Part shown: positions 46,480-57,530 of the stretch, one piece after another
Position numbering within the stretch: the first letter of the stretch is position 1
Layout: each line of letters starts with the position of its first letter
NCBI GenBank assembly: GCA_016870475.1
Contig: VGBO01000003.1
Coordinates: forward strand, 5,800 to 69,799
Direction of reading: 5' to 3'
DNA: 64,000 nt
Source: Actinomycetota bacterium
Lineage (GTDB): Bacteria; Actinomycetota; Acidimicrobiia; Acidimicrobiales; CAIXPF01
The notes under the pieces: generated by a model
Seen by the model: only the letters and a program-made list of their open reading frames with translations
Told to the model about the DNA's origin: nothing
Databases searched by the model: none
Program-made: the position numbers and the translations under genes

Positions 46480-46556
<77 letters not shown>

Positions 46557-46932: not shown

Positions 46933-47196
46933 TCATCGGTGATCCCTGTGGTCGTGTTGCCGGTGGCTGCGGGTGGCGACGGGCCGCCCGGCGAGTTCGC
47001 CAACGGCGTGCAACACATGATCAGGCACCACGGCTCGCGGTGGGTCGACGTGCCCGGTCGCCGGGTCGATCACGATCGTCACGGCGCCGCGCCGGATGCG
47101 GACTCGCCCGTCGACGAGCAGCGTGAGAGTGTGTTCGACGCGACCTTGGCAGTCGAGCAACTCGGCGCCCGCAAGGTAACGATCGAGGTCACTCAT
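46933..47196 (-). CDS. Hypothetical protein with a His-rich C-terminus
   Basis: ORF track 87 aa ending SHRQHDHRDHR. Lies 129 nt downstream of palindrome copy A. No family recognised; it may be a relic. Confidence 0.3.
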   Translation of the reverse strand: MSDLDRYLAGAELLDCQGRVEHTLTLLVDGRVRIRRGAVTIVIDPATGHVDPPRAVVPDHVLHAVGELAGRPVATRSHRQHDHRDHR

Positions 47197-47324
47197 GTCG
47201 GCCGACCGCCTGATCGGGGGCGACGCACTCGGTCGCCCCGAACGAGATGTTCGATGCTTCCGGAGGTGGTCTCCAGGCGCGGCCCACGGTTGACATGCAA
47301 CGACATGGGCAGATTCTAGCTGCG

Positions 47325-47343
47325 AATCGGAACGATTCCTATC
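47325..47343. promoter_or_regulatory. Metal-cluster palindrome, copy A
   Basis: AATCGGAA CGA TTCCTATC. Confidence 0.4.
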
Positions 47344-47372: not shown

Positions 47373-47828
47373 TCAGGAGGCGCAGTCGGCGCAGATCCCG
47401 ACGGCGTCGAGTCGGTGTCCGGTCGGCCGGAACCCGGTCTTACTGAGCGCCCTTTCGAGGGCCGCTGCGAGTGACCGCTCTGTGCTCGCCGGCACCACGA
47501 AATCGTCGATCGAACCGCACTCGATGCAGATGCTGTGGTGGTGGTGGCCGATGAGGTCCTCGTCAAGTTCGTAACGAGTGTGCTCATCGGTACCAATGAC
47601 CTTCTGCACGACACCGACAGCTTCGAGGTCGGCCATGTTCCGGTACATCGAGCTGAGTGTCAGCTTGGGTCGTTGCTCGACGAGTTCGGGCATGGTGGCC
47701 GGTCTGGACAGCCCAGCGAGCAGCCCGACGAGTTCCCGCCGTCCTTTGGTGAAGACGAGTCCGGCAGCGCGAACTCGTTGCTCCGCGAGCTGATGAAGTT
47801 CGCTCGTGTCGACGGCCATGCCGACCAT
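47373..47828 (-). CDS. Fur-family metalloregulator (Zur-like)
   Basis: ORF track 151 aa (alternative ATG at 47819). Winged-helix N-terminus, then HHHHSICIECG and CADC (a CxxC...CxxC structural site plus a His cluster). Confidence 0.85.
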   Translation of the reverse strand: MVGMAVDTSELHQLAEQRVRAAGLVFTKGRRELVGLLAGLSRPATMPELVEQRPKLTLSSMYRNMADLEAVGVVQKVIGTDEHTRYELDEDLIGHHHHSICIECGSIDDFVVPASTERSLAAALERALSKTGFRPTGHRLDAVGICADCAS

Positions 47829-47852
47829 GATACGCCGGTGTCAACGATTTTG

Positions 47853-47871
47853 AATCGGAACGAGTCCGATC
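47853..47871. promoter_or_regulatory. Metal-cluster palindrome, copy B
   Basis: AATCGGAA CGA GTCCGATC, 25 nt upstream of the Fur-family gene ATG at 47828. Confidence 0.45.
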
Positions 47872-48031: not shown

Positions 48032-48953
48032 TCAGACCGAGGCGGAGAATGCTGTCGCGGTGCACGTGATGGTGAAGCCGAGTCGCTCGTACAGCCCGAG
48101 AGCGGAGGTGTTCGCAGCATCGACGAACAACATGGCCCGCTCGATCCAGCGGTCACGAAGGGACCGCAGGCCGGCCTCGGCCAGGGAGCGACCCACACCG
48201 CGGCCGTGATGGGTTGGCCTCACCGCGAGGACGTAGATCTCGCCGATCGGCGAGCTTGGCGAGCGGTGAACCTTCGTCCAACAGAATCCGAGCATGGTGC
48301 CGCAGTCGTCGACGTGAAGCAGCAGCCCGGTCGGATCGAACCAATCGCTGGCGAAGCCAGCCTCGAGTGACGCGTGTGTTCAGTTGCCCTGGTCGGAATG
48401 ACGCTCGAAGGCCAGGTTGTTCACCTCGAGGAGTGCTGATTCGTCGACGCCTGCCACGAACTCGCGGGTGGGGAGCGTTGGGCGCGTCGGGGCGGCGCCG
48501 AGTTGCGTCTGCATCTGGTGCAACTGACGCGTTGGCAGCAAGCCATGTCGTTCGGCGGTCGCCCGATCGGTGGCGGTGGCCTCGTGACACCACCACCGCA
48601 CGCTCCGGGCGTTGCGCGCGGACCCACTCGATAGCAGCGCCACACGCGGTGTCGAGAATGCGGGCACGATCGGCGCGGCTGTGAGGATCGACTGCGATGT
48701 CGAGGGTCTAGGTGGTGGAAGGTTCCGCCGTGGGAGTCGCCTGTGCGTATGCCGCAGGGTTCAGCGATCGATCGAGAACGGCGAGCGCTCGTGCGATGAG
48801 CGTCCGATGAGTGGCTGCGCTCAACGCGTGGTCACTGAGCGGGGGTCGGCCATCGACGTCCTGGCATCGATCGAGCAGCTCGCGAACCGACGACCGGCTG
48901 ATCGCGTCGAATGCGTCGATGTCGATGACCGAGTACGGCGATGGCGCGGTCAT
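48032..48953 (-). pseudogene. mshD: Mycothiol synthase (MshD)-like GNAT acetyltransferase, disrupted
   Basis: Three collinear pieces. (1) 48953-48711 MTAPSPYSVIDIDAFDAISRSSVRELLDRCQDVDGRPPLSDH..., then an in-frame TAG at 48708. (2) LDIAVDPHSR..., with a frameshift near 48610-48650 into ...VRWWCHEATATDRATAERHGLLPTRQLHQMQ...LLEVNNLAFERHSDQGN, then a TGA at 48380. (3) THASLEAGFASDWFDPTGLLL...MLGFCWTKVH...GEIYVLAVRPTHHGRGVGRSL. Confidence 0.7.
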
Positions 48954-49768
48954 GTGCGTCGGCGCAAGGTCGTCACGGTGGCGACTGCGAAGCAGGCCAC
49001 GGTGACCAGCGCAATGGTCGGGCCGGGCGGGGTGGCGAGGTGATAGCTGGCGGTGAGACCAACGAGCGCGGAGAGCACTCCGATTGCGATCGCGACTGCG
49101 GTCATGGTCTCGATTCGCTGCGTCAGGAGGCGTGCGGTCGCCGCTGGGGTGATGAGCATCGCAACGCTCATCAGCAGCCCGACGGTGCCGAGACTGACGA
49201 CGACGGTGATGGAGATCAGCACGATCAGCACGAGCCGTAGCGGACCAACCGGGATGCCCACCTGACGGGCGTGGCCGGCGTCGAAGGTGACGTTGCGCAG
49301 ATCGGAGAACGTGAATGCAACGATGCACAAAGCCACGGCCGTCAACCCGCTGTTGACGATGATGTCGCTGCGTGTCGTGGTGACGATCTGGCCGAGCAGG
49401 AAGTGGGTGAGGTCGACGCCGATGCGGTCGTTGCGCGAGATCAGGATGAGGCCTGTTGCGAACATCAGCGTCTCGGCCACTCCGATGGCGCTGTCGTGTC
49501 CGAGTCGTCGCTGCCTGTCGAACAAGGCGACCAGGAGCCCCATGGTCACTCCCGCTGCGAGCGCGCCGACGGTGATGCTGATGCCGGTGAGGTAGGCGCC
49601 GGCGACACCAGCGAGGATTCCGTGGCTCATTGCGTCGCCGAGGTAGGCGAGGCGCCGCAGGACGACCCACACGCCGATGGTGGGGGCGAGCACGCCGATG
49701 AGTAGTGCGGTGATTGCCGCGTGCTGCATGAATTGGGTCCGGTAGGGGTCGGTGAACCAGTCGATCAT
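48950..49768 (-). CDS. Metal (Zn/Mn) ABC transporter permease, ZnuB/TroC-like
   Basis: ATG at 49768 overlaps the ATPase stop (ATGA). MIDWFTDPYRTQFMQHAAITALLIG...LAYLGDAMSHGILAGVAGAY. 272 aa, polytopic. Confidence 0.85.
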   Translation of the reverse strand: MIDWFTDPYRTQFMQHAAITALLIGVLAPTIGVWVVLRRLAYLGDAMSHGILAGVAGAYLTGISITVGALAAGVTMGLLVALFDRQRRLGHDSAIGVAETLMFATGLILISRNDRIGVDLTHFLLGQIVTTTRSDIIVNSGLTAVALCIVAFTFSDLRNVTFDAGHARQVGIPVGPLRLVLIVLISITVVVSLGTVGLLMSVAMLITPAATARLLTQRIETMTAVAIAIGVLSALVGLTASYHLATPPGPTIALVTVACFAVATVTTLRRRT

Positions 49769-50520
49769 GCGGCGCTGCTCGATCTGGGGGCCGTGCCGAA
49801 GGTGGCCTCGATGTGATCGGAGTCGAGTGCCTGCCCGGGTGGGCCGTCGCCCACGAGCCGCCGGTTGACGGCGAGGCAGCGACTGAACCGCCTGCGGGCC
49901 AGCGAAAGGTCGTGTGTGGCGACCAGGAGGGACGTGCCAGACGCAGCGAGGTCGGCGAACAGGTCGAACAGGGCTTCGGTGCGGGGTTCGTCGACACCGC
50001 TGAGGGCTTCGTCGAGCAGGATCAGGCGGGCTTCCTGGGCGAGTGCGCGAGCCAGGAAGGCGCGCTGCATCTGACCGCCTGACAGCGTCCCCAGTGGACG
50101 CCGGCGCAGATCGGCCAATCCGACGCGTTCGAGTGCGTCGTGCGCGGCTTGACGGTGCCGTTGGCCGGGTCGTTGCCCGAGGCGCAGGAACCTGCGTCGG
50201 CCGGCGAGTACGAGCTGGCCGACGGTGATCGGGAAGTCGACGTCGAGATCGCTGCGCTGGGGGATGTAGGCCGCTCCGAGCCGGTCGCGCTGATGGTGGC
50301 AGTGGTTGCCGCACAGCTCGACCGAGCCGTGGTGGTTGACGAGTCCGCTGATGGCTTTGAACAGCGTCGATTTACCGGCACCGTTGGGGCCGACGACGGC
50401 GATCAGCTCACCGACGTCCACCTGGAACGACACGTCAACGAGTGCCTCGGTGGCGGGCGGGTAGGTGACGCCGACCCCTGTGAGCTGCAGGATCGGATGG
50501 TCTCGAGGTGCGTCGTTCAT
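49765..50520 (-). CDS. Metal ABC transporter ATP-binding protein, ZnuC-like
   Basis: ATG at 50520 overlaps the binding-protein stop (ATGA). GPNGAGKSTL, LSGGQMQRAFLARAL and LILLDEALSGVD. Confidence 0.9.
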   Translation of the reverse strand: MNDAPRDHPILQLTGVGVTYPPATEALVDVSFQVDVGELIAVVGPNGAGKSTLFKAISGLVNHHGSVELCGNHCHHQRDRLGAAYIPQRSDLDVDFPITVGQLVLAGRRRFLRLGQRPGQRHRQAAHDALERVGLADLRRRPLGTLSGGQMQRAFLARALAQEARLILLDEALSGVDEPRTEALFDLFADLAASGTSLLVATHDLSLARRRFSRCLAVNRRLVGDGPPGQALDSDHIEATFGTAPRSSSAA

Positions 50521-51488
50521 CCGGCGCATTCGAGGCCGGCTGCGAGCCGGCGCAGGTTGTCACGCATGATCGATGCGTAGGTGTCGCCAGCGTCGAGCTG
50601 GTCCTGGGTCAGGCCCTCGATCGGGTCGAGCAGGTCGAGCTCCGCGCCGATCTCACGGGCGACCGTCTTCGCCAGGTCCGGCGGCGCGATCGACTCCAGG
50701 AAGATCGTGGTGACGCCCTCGGCTTTCGCCTCGGCGGCGATGGCTTTCAGGGTGCGCGGGTCAGGTTCGACATCGGGGGAGATGCCGGCGATCGGGATCT
50801 GGCGGAGGTCGTAGGTGTCGGCGAGGTACCCGAAGGCGCGATGACTGGTGACGATCACGCGTGAGCGGCACTTGGCCAGGCCGGCGCGGTACTCGCGGTC
50901 GAGCCCGCGCAGGTCGGTCAGATACGTCTCCGCGTTGGCGCGGTACGTGTCAGCGTTGTCCGGGTCGATCTCCGCGAGCGTGTTCGTGATGGCGTCCACC
51001 ATGGTGATCATCCGACTCGGGTCGAGCCACACGTGCGGGTCGACGTCGCCCTCCAGCACCTCACCGTCCACCTCGCCCTCAGTACCGGCGAGTTGCTCGT
51101 CGACCCCAAGGAGATCGACCGAGTCGAGGAGGTCGAGCCGGGTCACGCCTGCTGGCGAGTTGGCGAGTGCGGCCTCCACCTGCGGCTGGAACCCGCGGCC
51201 GAGATAGATCACCACGTCGGCCTCTTCGAAGGCGCCCATCTGAGCCGGCTGTAACTCCAAGTCGTGAGGTCCCTGCCCAGGCGGCGTCAGATCGGTCACC
51301 GAAACCAGGTCGCCGCCCACGCCCCTGGCCGCCTCGCCGAGGGGATAGAACGCGGCGAGCACGGTCAACGTCGGCTGCGAGCCACCCGTGTCGTCGCTAC
51401 CGCACGACGCAACAACCAGGCTCGCCGACACGGCGAACATGGTGAGGGAAGTGCGGATCGGCCGGATGCGGAGCGGAGAAGATCTCAT
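50517..51488 (-). CDS. Metal ABC transporter substrate-binding lipoprotein, ZnuA/TroA-like
   Basis: ORF track 323 aa. Lipobox VVASCG. Cluster A-I hallmarks GQGPHDLELQP, DPHVWLDP and VTSHRAFGYLA. The flexible loop is acidic rather than His-rich (EGEVDGEVLEGDVD). Confidence 0.85.
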   Translation of the reverse strand: MRSSPLRIRPIRTSLTMFAVSASLVVASCGSDDTGGSQPTLTVLAAFYPLGEAARGVGGDLVSVTDLTPPGQGPHDLELQPAQMGAFEEADVVIYLGRGFQPQVEAALANSPAGVTRLDLLDSVDLLGVDEQLAGTEGEVDGEVLEGDVDPHVWLDPSRMITMVDAITNTLAEIDPDNADTYRANAETYLTDLRGLDREYRAGLAKCRSRVIVTSHRAFGYLADTYDLRQIPIAGISPDVEPDPRTLKAIAAEAKAEGVTTIFLESIAPPDLAKTVAREIGAELDLLDPIEGLTQDQLDAGDTYASIMRDNLRRLAAGLECAG

Positions 51489-51504
51489 GGCCGCATCGTA
51501 TCAG

Positions 51505-51523
51505 AATAGGACAGATTCCGATT
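51505..51523. promoter_or_regulatory. Metal-cluster palindrome, copy C
   Basis: Reverse strand reads AATCGGAA TCT GTCCTATT. Lies 17 nt upstream of the binding-protein ATG (51488) and 111 nt upstream of the divergent ArsR-family gene. Confidence 0.45.
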
Positions 51524-51633
51524 TGATAGCCGATCCGTTCTGTGGGTCGCTGGGTGAGGCGGTGCACGGTCAGTTGCGCGGTTCGCACGAATCGACGCTG
51601 GACGATGACCCAACCGAGCAGACGCGTGCACAC

Positions 51634-51963
51634 ATGCGAATGTATGCATATGAGCGAGAGGTGACGTCGCCTCCCCCGGTCTCGATCGCTCGGGGTGCCG
51701 AGCTGCTCAAGACTCTGGGCAGCCCGGTTCGACTCGGGGTGATCTTGCAGCTGCAGGCTCACGGTGAGCAGTGCGTGCACGAGTTGGTGGCCTCACCCGA
51801 GGTGTCCCAGCCACTCATTTCGCAGCATCTTCGGGTGCTTCGCGACGCGCGGCTCATCGTCGGTCGGCGCGCTGGCAAAGAGATCCGCTACTCGATCGCA
51901 GACGATCACGTCTCACACATCGTTCACGATGTAATTCGACACGCCGAGGAGGAACTTCCATGA
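51634..51963 (+). CDS. ArsR/SmtB-family metalloregulator with an intact alpha5-type site
   Basis: ATG at 51634 inside track ORF 51388..51963. HTH LGSPVRLGVILQL...CVHELV...SQPLISQHLRVLRDARLI. C-terminal IADDHVSHIVHDVIRHAEEE gives D-x-H, then H 11 residues later, then x-x-E, as in SmtB/CzrA alpha5 Zn sites. Confidence 0.85.
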   Translation: MRMYAYEREVTSPPPVSIARGAELLKTLGSPVRLGVILQLQAHGEQCVHELVASPEVSQPLISQHLRVLRDARLIVGRRAGKEIRYSIADDHVSHIVHDVIRHAEEELP

Positions 51964-52109
51964 CCATGACACATACGGTCCACGACGACCATCAGCACGA
52001 GCACGGCCCCAACTGTGGCCATGCCGCGACCGAGCACGACGGCCACACGGACTACTTCCACGATGGTCACGTGCATCACCAGCACGACGGTCATTGGGAC
52101 GAGCACTGA
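51960..52109 (+). CDS. 49-aa histidine-rich metal-binding peptide
   Basis: ATG at 51960 overlaps the ArsR stop (ATGA) and follows GAGGAGGAA. MTMTHTVHDDHQHEHGPNCGHAATEHDGHTDYFHDGHVHHQHDGHWDEH has 15 His, 10 Asp/Glu and 1 Cys. Confidence 0.6.
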   Translation: MTMTHTVHDDHQHEHGPNCGHAATEHDGHTDYFHDGHVHHQHDGHWDEH

Positions 52110-52162
52110 CTTGTCGGTGCCACCGGCCAGCTGAAGGTGCACGCCCTCACTGGGAAATCGCC

Positions 52163-52570
52163 TCAGCTCCGCAGCCCTGACAACGCGACGCTGACACTCG
52201 GTGGGGTCGAGCCGTTCGAGAACACCCGTGCCGCGACCGCTGCCGGGGCCGGGGTGACGGCGTCGGCGGCGATCCAGTCGCAAAGCTGGTCGACGATCTC
52301 GTCGTCGAGCACACCACCGACCCAAACACGATCAGTCGAGATCCCGGCCGGTCGCACGATCACGACGTTCGACCGCTCGCACGCGCCGACGCACCCGACG
52401 ACCCGGCTTCGACCGCCCGCGGAGACGGCGGCAGCGTCGATGCGCTCGCGGATGGCCGCGTGGTCGACGCCGGGGTGTTTGCGGTCGGTACCGCAACAGC
52501 ACCCGTCGCACACCTGGACCCGAATGTTCAACCAGCGTTCTCGACGGGCTGCACCAGAGCGTGTCGTCAC
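52163..52570 (-). CDS. Cys-rich thioredoxin-like [2Fe-2S] ferredoxin-like protein
   Basis: GTG at 52570 overlaps the WD40 stop (GTGA). VQVCDGCCCGTDRKHPGVDH...VVGCVGACERSNVVIV. 135 aa. The longer 340-aa track ORF is a read-through. Confidence 0.65.
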   Translation of the reverse strand: MTTRSGAARRERWLNIRVQVCDGCCCGTDRKHPGVDHAAIRERIDAAAVSAGGRSRVVGCVGACERSNVVIVRPAGISTDRVWVGGVLDDEIVDQLCDWIAADAVTPAPAAVAARVFSNGSTPPSVSVALSGLRS

Positions 52571-53616
52571 CGCTGCTCCAGCGACGTCTCGTGAACAGGT
52601 CGACGTTCCAACGTGCCATCGGCGCGTCCGACAAGGAGCGAGCCGCCTGCGGGATGCCAGACGACCGTGGCGACGGCGACGTCTCCGTTGTGCACGTCGT
52701 CGGGTGTCAGCGGTCGCTTGACCGTGCGTGGCGACGGCCAGAGCGCGAGGCGGCCGTCGGCGCCCCCACTGCACAGTCGCGTGCCGGCGGGTTCCCAGGC
52801 GAGGCAGCTGATGTGCCTTTCGTGGGCGTTGCCGGTGGCTGGCCTCGTTCCCTTCGGGCCCTTGCCCGAGAAGTCCCACACGGTGAGCTCGTCGAGGCAC
52901 GCCGAGGCCATCCAGTGGCTGTCGTCGCGGAAAGCGAGGTGCTGGATCTTGGCGGGGTAGCCCGACATCGAGAGGTCGTCGCCCGACCACAGCCGCCACA
53001 GATGGATGCTCGAGTCCTGGAACCCGGCGCACGCCCACTTGCCATTCGGTGCCAGCACGAGCGCGAGTGGTGACCCCTTGAACTGGTGAGTTCGTGACGG
53101 CGTTCCGGCGTGCAGCCGTTCGGGGTCGTACCAGGTGATGCCCCCGTACGAGGTGACACCGATCCGTTTGCCATTCGTCGCCCACGCGACCGCGGTGATC
53201 GTCGACGAGACCGCCGGATACCGCTGGAGCCTTGCCCCGTCACGGTCGCAGAGAACGAGGTGCCGTCCGTCTGCCACCGCCAGGAGCGCACCGTCGGGCG
53301 ACCAAGCGACATGGGGGATCCATGCCGTCCCGAGATGCGCCGCCAGCTCGTGCCCTGTTCGGTCGTAGACGCGGATCACGCCGTCCTGGCCGCCGATCGC
53401 GAGTCGCGAACCGTCAGGCGACCACGCGCCGCACAGCACACCCATCGGGTGCTCCGCCAACTTGCAGACCACCAAACCATCGACCGTGACGATCGCCGCA
53501 TCGCCTCCGAGCGAACCGGCGGCGAGCAGATCTCCGTGCGGAGAGATAGTCAGTGCTGTGACGTAGTCGCCGAGCTGCATCTCCCATTCGACGGGGCCGA
53601 TCATCGGACCAGACAC
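52567..53616 (-). CDS. WD40 repeat beta-propeller protein
   Basis: ORF track 349 aa. An alternative ATG at 53604 forms ATGA with the upstream stop. Seven to eight repeats of the type xAWSPDGxxLAxGGxDGxIRVYD. Confidence 0.8.
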
Positions 53617-54590
53617 TCCCGGAAACTGCGCTCCAACGCAGCACGTTCGAGGTTGCGGCCGATGAACACCAGCTTGTTGCTGCGCGCCTCATCTGGCCGC
53701 CATGGTCGGTCGGCTTGACCGTCGAGGAGCATGTGCACGCCCTGGAACACATATCGCTCGTTCATGCCGGCAATCGACAAGATGCCCTTGGAGCGAAAGA
53801 TGTCCGTGCCCTGCTCCGCGAGAAGTCGTCCGAGCCACTTGTTCAGCCGATCGCCGTCCAGATCCCCGTCGGCCTGGATGCCGACCGAAGTGACCGTGGC
53901 GTCGTGCTGGTGTTCGGCATCAGGATCGAGGAACGCCGGGTCGTCGATCAACACACGATCGAGATCGAATGCGCCCACGTCGAGGATCAGGTCGAGATCC
54001 ACCTGACCGTGGCTCGTGTGGATGAGCGGCGCCAATGTGTTGATTTCGCAGATCCGGCGTTCGACCTCGGCGAGCTGAGGGGCGTCGACGAGATCGACCT
54101 TGTTGATCACCACTCGGTCAGCGAACGCCAACTGCTCCACGGCTTCGTTCTCGACGCCGTCGGCCTTGATCTCATCGAGGTGCAGCAGGAGGTGCTTCGC
54201 ATCGACCACCGTCACGATCGCATCGAGCCGTAGCTGTGCCGATACCTCAGGATCGACGAAGAAGGTCTGCGCCACCGGGGCGGGATCGGCGAGTCCGGTC
54301 GTTTCGATCACGATCTGATCGAAACGGTCCTTGCGCTTCATGAGATTGCCGAGGATTCGGATCAGGTCGCCGCGAACGGTGCAGCAGATGCAGCCGTTGT
54401 TCATCTCGAAGATCTCTTCCTCGGCCTCGAGCACGAGCGCGTCGTCGATGCCGACCTCACCGAACTCGTTCTCGATCACGGCGATCCGCTTGCCGTGCTG
54501 CGCAGTGAGGATGTGGTTCAGCAGCGTCGTCTTGCCCGCCCCGAGGAACCCGGTGAGCACGGTGACAGGTACCTTCGAGTCGATTGCCAT
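53601..54590 (-). CDS. COG0523-family GTPase metallochaperone (CobW/YciC/ZigA-like)
   Basis: ATG at 54590 inside track ORF 53601..54671. Walker [13 protein letters not shown], metal motif [14 protein letters not shown], and a C-terminal CobW_C-like domain. Confidence 0.9.
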
Positions 54591-54595
54591 GACGA

Positions 54596-54614
54596 AAGCA
54601 TAACGGGTCCTATT
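54596..54614. promoter_or_regulatory. Metal-cluster palindrome, copy D (weaker left half)
   Basis: AAGCATAA CGG GTCCTATT, 6 nt upstream of the COG0523 ATG. The right half is identical to that of copy C. Confidence 0.35.
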
Positions 54615-54738
54615 CCGAGAGGACACGGTGATGATCCTCGGAGGGGCTCGCGAGACTCGGCCTCGTGCCACCCCAATGGCTTGTGTCGGTGACGGTCAAA
54701 GACTGCGCGGTTCTGCCGGTCGAAAAGTGCGCGGTGTA

Positions 54739-54870
54739 GGGCCTGCCGCGGGTGGGGGTGACATCTGATCTGTGGTGCTGGGGAGTGCCGCGGGAGAGGA
54801 TGTGTTCCATGTCGAAGGTCGTTCGGATGGAGCGCTCCGCAGGCCGAGTTGGTAGGCCGGGCGGCGTTCC
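54739..54870 (+). mobile_element. Relic IS-like end (copy Y), colinear with copy X
   Basis: Shares the blocks CTGCCGCG, GACATCTGA, AGGATGT and TTCCA with 46698-46767. Block spacings are identical (17 and 37 nt). It is followed by a short ORF, MSKVVRMERS..., at the position of the OrfA-like start in copy X. Confidence 0.35.
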
Positions 54871-54990
54871 ATGATCTGCCGGGGACCGACGCCCAGAGGC
54901 GTCGAACGGGGCAGCTGGCGGGGCCTCCGGGTCAGCGTGGCTGGTCGGCGACTAGCGCGTGGTGATGGAGTGGTCGCTCGCCTGCGGGCG

Positions 54991-55464
54991 TCAGCGAGGC
55001 GGGTTGTCGGACATCGTCACCGGGACGTCGAGCGTTCGGCCCGAGGAGAACCGGAGGGTGGCGGTGAAGGTGTCGCCGCTCTCGAGCGGGCCCGCAAGGT
55101 CGACCAGCATGATGTGGTTGCCGCCGGGTCGGAACTTGACGGTTGCGCCGGCTTCGATGACGACTTCGGCGACCTGCTCCATGGTGACGGTGCCACTGCC
55201 GACCGCGCCGTGTTGGTGGCCGTCGCCCCCGGCAGCATCGGATGTGTGGAGCTCGGCACGTCCGGCGATGTCGGTTGGCACGTCGGCAGCGACGAGCACG
55301 TCGCGGACGTCGCTACTGAGCTCGAGGTAGATCACCCCGTTCGTGGCCCCGGCTGGTGTCGGGCGGGCCCAGGCTCCCGACGCACCGAAGGCGATCTGGT
55401 CGCCGCCGCAACCAGCAAGCATCCAGCACGCGACGAACAGAGCGGCGGCGCGGTGCCTCCTCAC
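54991..55464 (-). CDS. Copper chaperone PCu(A)C lipoprotein
   Basis: GTG at 55464 overlaps the upstream stop (GTGA). Lipobox MLAGCGG. AELH...M...GNHIML fits the H(M)x10Mx21HxM motif. Confidence 0.8.
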   Translation of the reverse strand: MRRHRAAALFVACWMLAGCGGDQIAFGASGAWARPTPAGATNGVIYLELSSDVRDVLVAADVPTDIAGRAELHTSDAAGGDGHQHGAVGSGTVTMEQVAEVVIEAGATVKFRPGGNHIMLVDLAGPLESGDTFTATLRFSSGRTLDVPVTMSDNPPR

Positions 55465-56993
55465 GCCTGGCCGAACGTGCGGCGCAGCGGTGAAACGCTC
55501 TGGATGACCAACTTGTCGAATGCAACGATGACCAGCGCGACTGCTGCCCACAGCGGGTAGACGATGCCGAGCAGGACCGCGGCGCCGACGAGCTTCCATG
55601 TCAGGCGTGGGTCGGCGGGTCGGCGTGGGAGGCCGAGGGTGCCGGGCCGGCGACGCCTCCAGAACATGACGAAGGCGCTGATCACCGACCAGATTGACAG
55701 GACACACAGCAGTGTCATGAAAATGCGGCTGACCAATCCGAGCTGGGTGCCCATGTGGGTGCTCACGAGGTAGTCCATGCCGACGCTGATGGTACCGACT
55801 CCGTAGATCCGCTGTTCGTCGAGCGTGGCCCCGGAGAACTGGTCAACGAAGACGTTGCGTGCCTCGCCGGTCTGACGTGGCCACGAGTTGTAGAGCGTGA
55901 AACTGCCATAGACGGGGTTGCCGGCTTCGTCGGTCTCGTTGGCCGGGAACGAGATCGTGTAGCCGGGCTTCATTCCCTCGTCCTCGGCGATGCGTACCGC
56001 ACTGTCGAGGCTCATCGGGGACGGCATCGTGCCATCGACAGCGACGGGGGCATAGCTCGCAGGGATCACGAAGTCGCCGGTCGCCCACGGGATCTGGTTG
56101 CCGAACCGGTCGAGATCGCCACGGGTCGCGCTGGTGCTCGCCGTGTTCTCAGCTGCACTCCCCGGCGTGACCCGTTCGGCGAGAGAACTGAACCCGTCCG
56201 CCCAGTACGACGACCAAGCCATCCCGGACACGATCGTGAGCACCATGACCGGGATCATGACGAACCCGGTCAGACCGTGCAGGTCACGCCAACGTGCCCG
56301 TCCCCCGGCTGCCCACCTGACGCCGATCAACCGCCGTGCACCCTTGGAACCCTGGCTCTGACTCGACCGCCGCGGCCAAAACAGGTACAGCCCTGAACCG
56401 ACCAGCACCAGAGTCCAGACGCCGAGGACTTCCAGGACCAGATCACCCACGACGTACTCACGCATCACCGGTCCGTCGCTCCACAACGCCGCGACCGCAG
56501 GCAGCGTGACGGTGAGCGAGTCGTTGTTCAGGAAGCCGTGCAGACGATTCGACAGCCCGATCACTGCACCGCCAGGCTTCGAGACCCCGAGCACCTCAGC
56601 GGTGTAGGGGTCGACGAAGACGTGGAGGCCGCTGGCGCTGCCGTCATCGACGAAGAACCGTGTGGTCGCCTCCCGATCCGCTGGCGGGGTCAGATCGGAC
56701 ACGGTGCCGTCGGGGTAGGCGGCTGCAACAGCCTCTGCCTGCTCGTCGAACGACACGTACTCGGTCGAGCGCGATTCGGTCGAGCGGATGTCACCCTCGG
56801 TCGCTTGTTGGATCGGATCGGTGTACAGGATGACCGGACCTGTGACCGCCATCAGCAAGATGAACGGCATGGCGAACATGCCCGAGTAGAAGTGCACCCG
56901 CCACAACGAACGCCACTGACGACTCGACGAATCCCCGGACGACGCTGTCGGCGAAGTCGCCTCATCCCTGTTGGTCACGTTCGGCTCGCTCAC
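55461..56993 (-). CDS. PepSY-domain / PepSY-associated TM helix membrane protein
   Basis: GTG at 56993 is preceded by GAGGAG, inside the 653-aa track ORF. WRSLWRVHFYSGMFAMPFILLMAVTG, WRDLHGLTGFVMIPVMV and C-terminal TM helices. Confidence 0.75.
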   Translation of the reverse strand: MSEPNVTNRDEATSPTASSGDSSSRQWRSLWRVHFYSGMFAMPFILLMAVTGPVILYTDPIQQATEGDIRSTESRSTEYVSFDEQAEAVAAAYPDGTVSDLTPPADREATTRFFVDDGSASGLHVFVDPYTAEVLGVSKPGGAVIGLSNRLHGFLNNDSLTVTLPAVAALWSDGPVMREYVVGDLVLEVLGVWTLVLVGSGLYLFWPRRSSQSQGSKGARRLIGVRWAAGGRARWRDLHGLTGFVMIPVMVLTIVSGMAWSSYWADGFSSLAERVTPGSAAENTASTSATRGDLDRFGNQIPWATGDFVIPASYAPVAVDGTMPSPMSLDSAVRIAEDEGMKPGYTISFPANETDEAGNPVYGSFTLYNSWPRQTGEARNVFVDQFSGATLDEQRIYGVGTISVGMDYLVSTHMGTQLGLVSRIFMTLLCVLSIWSVISAFVMFWRRRRPGTLGLPRRPADPRLTWKLVGAAVLLGIVYPLWAAVALVIVAFDKLVIQSVSPLRRTFGQA

Positions 56994-57530
56994 GGTGTTC
57001 GCTCTCCTCGGTGGGGTTGGCGGGTTCGCAGGGCCCTTGCACCTGACGGGTAGACCGGCGTGCGGTTCCAAAAGTTCCCTCGTGCTCCCGGCGTTGAGCT
57101 TCGGTGGCAACGACGCAATCCCGTCGAACTGTCGACGGGGCCCGTGGTCGACTTGCGCAGCGCCGATCCCCGGGGCCTCGGTGAGGTCCCAGGTCTGGGC
57201 GAACTCGTCGGTGGTGTAGGTCATGTCGACGGCAGCCTCGAAGGACAGTCGTCCGGGTGGGCAGCAGTCATCGACGCGTTCCGTCGTCGCCGGGTTGTCG
57301 AGGCTGGCATCCACGGCATCGCGCACCGCTACCCAGGCGCCCACCAGGTCGGTCTCGACAGATAGAAGGTCGGTGTCTCGATGCCCGCACGCTTCGAGCA
57401 GGGCCTCGGCCCTGGGATCCACTCAACGAGATGCCGCACGACGCTGCAAGACGTCTCGCGCCGCCCATCCTGGACACGGTGACAGCGGTCGACCTGATGA
57501 GTCAGGACGTTCGCCGTCACTTGCACGTAT
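56994..57530 (-). pseudogene. DinB/MDMPI-like (mycothiol-dependent maleylpyruvate isomerase N-terminal domain family) relic
   Basis: SPCPGWAARDVL at about 57450-57485, an in-frame TGA at 57423-57425, then VDPRAEALLEACGH...TYTTDEFAQTWDLTEAPG. There is no own stop, so it runs in frame into the PepSY gene. Confidence 0.35.

Follow-up and report, generated by a model that had tools for sequence, protein, structure and literature searches.

Among prokaryotes, genes for subfamily 5 of the COG0523 GTPases cluster with WD40, znuABC and creatinase-like genes; several of these clusters lie behind Zur sites, and the same subfamily holds most of the eukaryotic COG0523 homologues (Haas et al. 2009, BMC Genomics 10:470, PMC2770081). 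The supplement to that study lists the order znuCBA-COG0523-5-WD40-sapB in B. japonicum, together with clusters in Nitrobacter, R. palustris and Synechococcus WH8102; the mechanism was not given. Here, a related locus was analysed in a stretch of 64,000 nucleotides (nt) from an actinomycetotal genome of the class Acidimicrobiia (contig VGBO01000003.1, positions 5,800 to 69,799), referred to below as the window. It is a minus-strand operon in which a COG0523 gene is followed by genes for a WD40 beta-propeller and for a small Cys-rich, ferredoxin-like protein. The first-pass annotation of this DNA could place the partnership of COG0523 with a propeller and a putative Cys metal protein in no described pathway; for the COG0523-WD40 pairing, this statement does not stand beside the clusters with znuABC behind Zur boxes reported in 2009 (PMC2770081). 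A literature search found no later work on the WD40 partner of COG0523; besides the 2009 study, only papers on AztD and DUF34 were retrieved. The pairing is thus on record at the level of the genome, and its mechanism still lacks an explanation. We regard the locus as one variant of the published cluster and not as a system of a new kind; the mechanism presented here stays a proposal.

As in the clusters described by Haas et al., the window carries a COG0523 gene and then a WD40 gene, beside znuABC and behind a Fur-family box, and the WD40-partnered GTPases of Cyanobacteria and Proteobacteria are 57-63% identical to that of the window. The earlier clusters belong to Alphaproteobacteria and Cyanobacteria, whereas the window comes from Acidimicrobiia and has a different box sequence; it also adds the ferredoxin-like third gene and is without sapB and COG1402. 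We consider it probable that the locus is a zinc-limitation operon under Zur-type repression, in which the WD40 protein would be the dedicated adaptor of the GTPase and the Cys-rich protein an optional metal-handling accessory. The assignment to a zinc regulon is made with greater confidence than this reading as a whole.

The three genes are arranged in tandem on the minus strand with 4-nt overlaps at both joints. The COG0523 gene (53601-54590, 329 amino acids) starts at an ATG at 54590, and its TGA overlaps the ATG of the WD40 gene (52567-53604, 345 amino acids) in the ATGA at 53604-53601. The TGA of the WD40 gene in turn overlaps, in the GTGA at 52570-52567, the GTG that opens the Cys-rich open reading frame (ORF; 52163-52570, 135 amino acids), a start that matches the one used by homologues of 135 amino acids. 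The proposal that overlapping stop and start codons chain the three genes into one operon was therefore borne out by the sequence. The ratio of nonsynonymous to synonymous substitution rates (dN/dS) was below 1 throughout (0.07-0.15 for COG0523, 0.24-0.32 for WD40 and 0.35-0.46 for the Cys-rich gene). All three genes are thus under purifying selection, and the WD40 and Cys-rich ORFs are not the non-expressed relics that the first-pass annotation had allowed for. No second copy of any of the three genes was found elsewhere in the 64-kb window.

The first product was confirmed as a COG0523 protein. It matched the Pfam families cobW (PF02492, 2.1e-62) and CobW_C (PF07683, 2.6e-27), and its translation contains the P-loop GFLGAGKTT, the CxCC motif GCICC and the linker EHQHD, so that both the Walker A signature GxxGxGK[ST] and the metal-binding CxCC motif by which COG0523 proteins are recognised are present. 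All scores against NCBIfam models were below the respective cut-offs (YjiA/PRK11537, 248 against 361; CobW, TIGR02475, 228 against 332 bits; ZigA, 212 against 600; MRF, 37 against 375), and the closest solved relative is E. coli YjiA. Judged by the WD40/znuABC context and by 57-71% identity to partnered GTPases, the window protein is a candidate member of subfamily 5, the group of eukaryotic ZNG1. The annotated partnered COG0523 genes of Paraburkholderia (L078, 3868-4971) and Pantoea (L079, 3619-4971) encode an insertion of about 120 amino acids that separates the GTPase domain from CobW_C; in Paraburkholderia the gene as annotated is without the P-loop region at the N-terminus, and it may have been truncated or given a wrong start.

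Eukaryotic ZNG1 (CBWD) is a zinc transferase for METAP1 and has an N-terminal client-binding extension. The window GTPase has the P-loop, the CxCC motif and the CobW_C architecture in common with ZNG1; since only seven residues precede its first strand, it is without an extension of the ZNG1 type. By analogy, the separate WD40 protein may supply the client docking that is carried out by this extension in ZNG1. To our knowledge, no WD40 partner has been described for ZNG1 itself.

Conservation of the pair was determined in a sample of 77 Acidimicrobiia species loci with an orthologous WD40 gene, 75 of which could be evaluated for adjacency. In 73 of the 75, the WD40 gene is directly preceded by the COG0523 gene in the same orientation. 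The exceptions were L077, where the two genes overlap and the WD40 gene is truncated, and L023, where there is no GTPase gene within 6 kb. The GTPase, at about 80% identity, is much better conserved than the propeller, at about 45-50%. The pair, often with overlapping codons, was also found in Paraburkholderia, Pantoea, Dolichospermum, Lichenicola, Sinorhizobium and Streptomyces, where the WD40 homologues directly following COG0523 are 28-38% identical to that of the window. The partnered GTPases found there are 57-71% identical to the window protein, compared to 25-39% for the COG0523 paralogues in the same loci, which argues that these GTPases form one orthologous subfamily, to which the propeller is a dedicated partner. 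It is very improbable that the adjacency is nothing but inherited synteny without functional coupling. Some neighbours confined to a single clade are indeed merely syntenic, such as the alpha/beta-hydrolase-like ORF downstream in 20 Poriferisodalis-type loci, but the COG0523-WD40 pair persists in four or more phyla, on plasmids too, with overlapping codons and amid neighbourhoods that are otherwise unrelated.

When the ORFs within 2.5 kb of the pair were clustered, the recurrent neighbours were confined to the Fur-family gene, the Cys-rich gene and genes of ABC importers; the remaining clusters reflected clade synteny or spurious ORFs of high-GC DNA. Two unusual arrangements of the pair were also observed. 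In a metagenome locus (L087, 8771-11773), two WD40 paralogues of 339 and 329 amino acids stand in tandem behind a COG0523 gene. On a Pantoea soli plasmid (L094, 3496-4764) the pair appears to have decayed to a GTPase fragment of 96 amino acids and a split WD40 gene, adjoining a nickel transporter gene, a Fur-family repressor gene, zigA and a QueD-like gene, which suggests that the presence of ZigA allows the pair to be lost.

The WD40 protein matched Pfam WD40 (PF00400) at 110.9 bits against a cut-off of 27, its Pfam matches being to generic WD40 families. In an AlphaFold2 (AF2) model built with 18 orthologues (predicted local distance difference test, pLDDT, of 90), 32 strands were arranged as eight blades of four. 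Foldseek comparison gave template modelling (TM) scores of 0.85-0.87 to the eight-bladed ODA16, TBLR1, Rsa4/Notchless and designed Ika8, and of only 0.61-0.68 to the seven-bladed WDR5, PkwA and WRAP-T. The estimate of seven to eight blades made from the sequence is in agreement with these results, and the model favours eight. Family-specific loops are present at residues 213-219 (MSGYPAK) and 247-255 (GKGPKGTRP), and the signatures WKGS, QDxSIHLW, MSGYPxK and WDFxGKGPxGTxP are kept by WD40 homologues of other phyla (those of Paraburkholderia and Pantoea were aligned). Within the AF2 model, the conserved loop at 214-218 has a low pLDDT, as expected of a partner-binding loop, and this suggests that it is an interface.

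None of the WD40 residues that are conserved across phyla is a Cys, and on our reading of the alignment the His and Asp among them fit the canonical structural tetrad; there is no Cys/His cluster. For this reason the propeller was read as a scaffold rather than as a metal site. A WD40 scaffold is known from metallocofactor delivery, CIAO1 being a docking platform in the cytosolic Fe-S targeting complex; the likeness is one of analogy, with no specific sequence relationship to the window protein. A different role was considered, in which the WD40 protein would itself be a zinc-binding metallochaperone or store, loaded or unloaded by the GTPase, in the manner of AztD. AztD is also a beta-propeller in zinc homeostasis, and it establishes that such a fold can transfer zinc; its genes are often found near those of the CobW family. 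AztD is, however, periplasmic or located at the cell surface, is not built of WD40 repeats and has defined zinc sites. In contrast, the window protein is a WD40 propeller without a conserved Cys/His cluster; no hydrophobic N-terminal signal segment was seen on reading the translation by eye, and the protein is predicted to be cytoplasmic. Furthermore, no AztD chain occurred among its 60 best PDB sequence matches or its 50 best fold matches. An AztD-like role is therefore considered improbable, and the function of adaptor is preferred.

The evidence for common regulation comes from a conserved sequence box. In front of the COG0523 gene, a Fur/Zur-type box, GGAATAGGACCCGTTATGCT, was found at 54597-54616 on the minus strand; it ends exactly 6 nt before the ATG and scores 17.0 bits against a position weight matrix (PWM). 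In the 77 Acidimicrobiia loci the consensus box before the COG0523 start is GGAATGAGAAYCATTAYCAT, the core of which, ATGAGAAT-N-ATTCTCAT, is an 8-1-8 dyad. Of 68 loci, 49 have the palindromic consensus no more than 40 nt away from the COG0523 start, and in 44 of 61 scored loci a gap of 6-7 nt separates the box from the start codon. With up to four mismatches allowed, the idealised palindrome occurs 105 times in 835 kb, and 54 of these matches (51%) fall in the 40-nt zones before COG0523 genes, which make up 0.3% of the sequence. Among the window and seven relatives (8 loci), the positions GAAT..GTTA..T do not vary, nor does their distance from the ATG, and the variant GGAAT-N-GGA-NNN-GTTATGAT is common to the window's closest relatives in a leader that is otherwise unalignable. 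The box resembles published Fur/Zur boxes, for example those of Firmicute Zur such as S. aureus yciC TAAAaCGgAATtATTcCtATTTA (Haas et al., PMC2770081).

The first-pass annotation had described an operator-like palindrome that ends 6 nt before the first ATG. The position was correct and the box is conserved, but its dyad symmetry in the window is poor, and a repeat search of 54560-55010 found no inverted repeat. The case for an operator at the start of the operon consequently depends on the conservation of a Fur/Zur-type box across Acidimicrobiia and not on the symmetry of this copy; a palindrome cannot be defended from the window sequence alone. The 3' part of the box, TATGCT (54602-54597), which reads TATCAT or TACCAT in other loci, looks like an actinobacterial -10 hexamer, and the mRNA would then be leaderless or nearly so. 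A -10 element at the box, with the transcription start at or next to the ATG, would account for the fixed spacing and would imply repression by promoter occlusion.

When the PWM was scanned over the 64-kb window with a threshold of 13.7 bits, five sites were obtained, all at 47.3-54.6 kb and near the COG0523 gene, znuA or the gene of a Fur-family regulator. The regulator (47373-47828, minus strand, 151 amino acids; Pfam FUR, PF01475, 2.2e-15) contains the motifs HHHHSICIECG (HHHHxxCxxC) and GICADC (the C-terminal CxxC) and is, by context, a candidate Zur. Its orthologues adjoin the pair in 16 loci, either just before COG0523 or just after WD40, and also in Streptomyces. A box just upstream of its gene (47851-47870, plus strand, 14.8 bits) suggests autoregulation. 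Between the regulator gene and the operon lie znuA (50517-51488), znuC (49765-50529) and znuB (48950-49780), all on the minus strand, which encode a cluster A-I metal ABC importer (Pfam ZnuA, 1e-78; ABC_tran, 4e-28; ABC-3, 2e-65). An overlapping pair of boxes (51500-51522; 18.7 bits on the plus strand and 13.7 bits on the minus strand) occupies the divergent region between znuA and an arsR gene and ends about 11 nt before the znuA ATG. Because boxes accompany znuA and the Fur-family gene as well as the operon, the locus was read as a zinc-limitation regulon island, and the link to zinc starvation suggested from the COG0523 gene finds support in the neighbouring znuABC, the Zur-type regulator and the common boxes.

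This context recurs elsewhere. A znuABC set adjoins the COG0523-WD40 pair in 10 of the 77 loci, and in metagenome locus L087 the same families lie beside an operon of L28-L33-L31 ribosomal-protein paralogues, a marker of Zur regulons, together with a second COG0523 gene and znuABC. That second COG0523 gene is divergent from an operon of the order rpmB2-rpmG2-rpmE2-Cys-rich gene.

The best box in the window (47323-47342, plus strand, 20.6 bits) is the perfect 6-3-6 dyad GAATCG-GAA-CGATTC and is found just downstream of the Fur-family gene. It precedes two minus-strand ORFs joined by an ATGA overlap, 47193-47306 (37 amino acids) and 46933-47196 (87 amino acids). Neither had a Pfam match, and they could be unannotated members of the regulon or non-coding.

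Convergent on the operon, an ArsR/SmtB repressor and a His-rich peptide are encoded on the plus strand (51634-52109), the arsR start being at 51634 or 51661. The repressor (Pfam HTH_5, 1e-11; NCBIfam HTH_metalloreg, 1e-22) has a complete alpha5 zinc site of the SmtB/CzrA type, DDHVSHIVHDVIRHAEE (DxHx10Hx2E). The peptide of 49 amino acids, MTMTHTVHDDHQHEHGPNCGHAATEHDGHTDYFHDGHVHHQHDGHWDEH (51960-52109), is joined to it by an ATGA overlap at 51960-51963 and belongs to no Pfam or NCBIfam family. Both genes recur beside COG0523-WD40 in L001, L004, L069, L124 and Streptomyces (L093). They look like a zinc-excess arm, although their membership of the system is uncertain, and the peptide may be a His-based, metallothionein-like buffer of the same system. 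The same peptide was also seen beside the pair in L111 and, without arsR, in Paraburkholderia (L078); in some of all these loci it takes the form of a tandem two-repeat protein.

The third protein contains the motif VCDGCCCGT...GCVGAC, and alignment of 35 homologues revealed invariant residues C21, C24, C25, C26, G27, T28, R30, K31, H32, P33, D36, H37, C60, C64, S67 and N68. There was no significant Pfam match for the window protein: PF01257, the thioredoxin-like ferredoxin family, scored below its gathering threshold (15 bits compared to 24.8, E 0.023), and the NCBIfam model fdxn_Clost gave 18.9 against a cut-off of 150. A sequence search of the PDB returned chance matches only. The fold was nevertheless recognised from an AF2 model (pLDDT 85). 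Almost all of the top PDB matches obtained with Foldseek were thioredoxin-like [2Fe-2S] ferredoxin domains (HydB/C, FdsG, NuoE, Aquifex Fd4 and an R. capsulatus thioredoxin-like ferredoxin, with 1M2B and 9JN8 among the entries), with a probability of about 1.0, an E value of 4e-3 and TM scores of up to 0.65. The family profile aligned C21, C26, C60 and C64 with the Cx4C...Cx3C ligands of HydB and Fd4, with weak E values of 0.07 and 0.32. The likeness to thioredoxin-fold [2Fe-2S] ferredoxins noted from the sequence is thus upheld by the fold comparison, and the four-Cys pattern is invariant in the 35 homologues. The protein could carry either a [2Fe-2S] cluster or Zn/Co bound directly through its Cys6His2 set, and any specific role is assigned to it with low confidence.

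The family numbers approximately 556 representatives at 50% clustering. In many of its members (eight were noted), which are about 340-420 amino acids long, the Cys-rich N-terminus is fused to DUF6925; no PDB relative of DUF6925 was found by sequence, and a literature search for this domain was likewise negative.

The position of the Cys-rich gene was determined in two ways. In 72 species loci centred on WD40, with a fetched flank of up to 6 kb, the gene was directly downstream of WD40 in 6, elsewhere within 6 kb in 24 and absent from the fetched flank in 42. In a second sample of 80 metagenome loci centred on the Cys-rich gene, 43 of which were at least 5 kb in length, 27 of these 43 had a WD40 homologue and 25 an orthologous COG0523 gene. 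About 16 distinct loci have the trio in tandem, among them Streptomyces and loci of a divergent clade known only from unclassified metagenome contigs; the trio is therefore conserved beyond the window. In 21 tandem loci only 42-100 nt separate the stop of WD40 from the codon of the first conserved Cys, which leaves no room for a separate promoter before the Cys-rich gene. In Streptomyces sp. N50 the order is zur - COG0523 - WD40 - Cys-rich - arsR - His-rich protein - arsR. The trio is recurrent but optional.

These counts bear on the idea that all three proteins form one fixed stoichiometric complex, with the Cys-rich protein as an obligate metal acceptor or as a zinc-independent replacement. 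In its favour are the stop/start overlaps seen in the window as well as in L001 and Streptomyces (L093), the occurrence of the tandem trio in divergent clades and the presence of WD40 and COG0523 genes in most of the longer Cys-rich loci. In contrast, the Cys-rich gene is directly downstream of WD40 in so few species loci, and lies in other operons so often, that we regard such a complex as unlikely. It closes an operon of FecCD, Peripla_BP_2 and ABC-ATPase genes in L020, divergent from COG0523-WD40 and with two boxes in the shared intergenic region; FecCD-type linkage was also seen in L085 and several metagenome loci, and boxes were found near the FecCD-type operon in L030 and L059. It also follows rpmB2-rpmG2-rpmE2, as well as cbtB-cbtA in loci with no COG0523 or WD40 match in the fetched flanks, and many homologues are fused to DUF6925 instead. 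The fixed partnership of three proposed by the first-pass annotation therefore holds for COG0523 and WD40, which are adjacent almost without exception, and fails for the Cys-rich gene. Unidentified ORFs beside the Cys-rich genes of L020, L082 and L085 had no Pfam match.

The cbtB-cbtA linkage raises the question of which metal is concerned. In L082 (4847-6363), the one cbtBA locus that was scanned for it, a cobalamin riboswitch precedes cbtB, cbtA and a Cys-rich homologue joined by a 4-nt overlap, and the same gene context was found in a further 14 loci. DUF1636 proteins, which occur in B12 operons with a suggested role in cobalt insertion, have been modelled on the Aquifex ferredoxin fold. 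Thirteen of 35 Cys-rich family members matched DUF1636 (PF07845) weakly at E ≤ 1, the best at 3e-4, and the window protein did not match it; the family is at most a distant relative of DUF1636. The cobalamin operons with CobW and DUF1636 resemble the window in combining a COG0523 GTPase with a small, thioredoxin-like, Cys-rich metal-binding protein. They differ from it in the motif, the window protein having a CxxCCCGTxRKHPxVDH of its own, in the GTPase, which in the window is no CobW equivalog, and in the context, which is zinc here instead of B12.

It could thus be argued that the operon serves cobalt/B12, in the manner of CobW, or nickel, and that the ferredoxin-like protein has a cobalt insertion role of the DUF1636 type. 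In addition to the cbtBA context and the weak DUF1636 similarity, the score of the window GTPase against the CobW model and the HoxN-type transporters near some subfamily-5 genes (Haas et al., PMC2770081) would fit this explanation. However, the CobW score falls well short of its cut-off, and neither the window nor those COG0523-WD40 loci that were scanned (L020, L038, L087 and L093) yielded a cobalamin riboswitch. Furthermore, znuABC and a Fur-family regulator are the neighbours, the ribosomal-protein paralogues of L087 are typical of zinc regulons, and ZnuA of the window carries three His (PHD, DPHVW and TSHRAF) at positions read as zinc-type. There is accordingly little likelihood that the operon serves cobalt or nickel, and zinc is preferred as its metal. 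The occurrence of the Cys-rich family in both zinc and cobalt contexts suggests that it handles imported divalent metal and is not specific for zinc; alternatively, a ferredoxin function may be common to both.

Under the favoured reading of a Zur-repressed zinc-limitation operon, a Fur-family repressor would, when zinc is sufficient, occupy the box that overlaps the -10 element just before the COG0523 start and block transcription; when zinc is low, the operon and znuABC would be expressed together. The COG0523 GTPase would then hand scarce zinc to client proteins by means of its CxCC site and GTP, and the propeller would most likely serve as an adaptor for docking, through which the GTPase cycle is linked to a client or metal source. 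Other G3E GTPases have a dedicated non-enzymatic partner encoded beside them that links nucleotide hydrolysis to metal delivery, as in UreG-UreF/UreD, HypB-HypA and MeaB-mutase; none of these partners is a WD40 propeller, and it is by analogy with them that an interaction is proposed for the window. The Cys-rich protein would be a lineage-variable accessory, metal-handling or redox, for imported divalent metal, its gene being joined, depending on the lineage, either to the COG0523-WD40 operon or to metal importer genes.

Several observations weigh against this reading. The window box has more than six mismatches to the idealised palindrome and is a weak site as well as a poor palindrome, and a simple consensus scan of 51300-55100 found no sigma-70-like promoter. 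The Fur-family regulator reached no NCBIfam equivalog cut-off, and its best sub-threshold match was to Fur, not Zur. Physical contact between the GTPase and the WD40 protein, which is suggested by gene order, is given only slightly better than even chances. Two candidate COG0523-WD40 fusions that might have served as Rosetta-stone evidence were rejected, P0074 (438 amino acids) being a frameshifted C-terminus and L077 an N-terminally truncated WD40 protein. No consistent client gene was found among the ORFs clustered within 2.5 kb of the pair in the 77 loci. Finally, the link of the Cys-rich family to cobalt uptake means that the metal handled need not be zinc.

A more specific version of the mechanism can be put forward only tentatively, with odds that we place clearly below even. 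In this version, the WD40 protein would be an obligate client-docking or GTPase-regulating subunit of COG0523 zinc chaperones of the ZNG1 type in bacteria at large, replacing the N-terminal arm of ZNG1, and the Cys-rich protein would be a hitherto unrecognised cytoplasmic relay from the ZnuABC, FecCD or CbtAB importers, leading to COG0523 in the case of zinc. If the propeller were such a docking subunit and the Cys-rich protein a Zn(II)/Co(II) relay, the locus would encode a complete zinc delivery chain from import to client. The clients and partners of bacterial COG0523 zinc-starvation proteins are mostly unknown, and the propeller is the most obvious candidate partner. The analysis adds to the earlier description the tightness of the pair over 77 species and 80 metagenome loci, the prediction of eight blades with candidate interface loops, and a Cys-rich family of ferredoxin fold that switches between zinc-limitation and cobalt-uptake (cbtBA) operons. 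Since Streptomyces sp. N50 is a cultivable carrier of the full set, the question is directly testable.

Further features were recorded around the operon. Two JGI metagenome contigs, Ga0194123_10011138 (L095) and Ga0169931_10026073 (L096), carry a near-identical locus from WD40 through znuB and zur, at 96-100% at the protein level, which suggests that this organism or a very close relative has been sampled repeatedly. Directly upstream of the operon and in the same orientation, genes for a PepSY_TM membrane protein and a copper-chaperone-type protein of the PCuAC (LpqE-like) family are located at 54991-57422 on the minus strand; both families also occur near the COG0523-WD40 pair in L001, L096, L097 and L087. 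A tRNA-Met (CAT) gene lies just outside the regulon island, at 46480-46556 on the plus strand.

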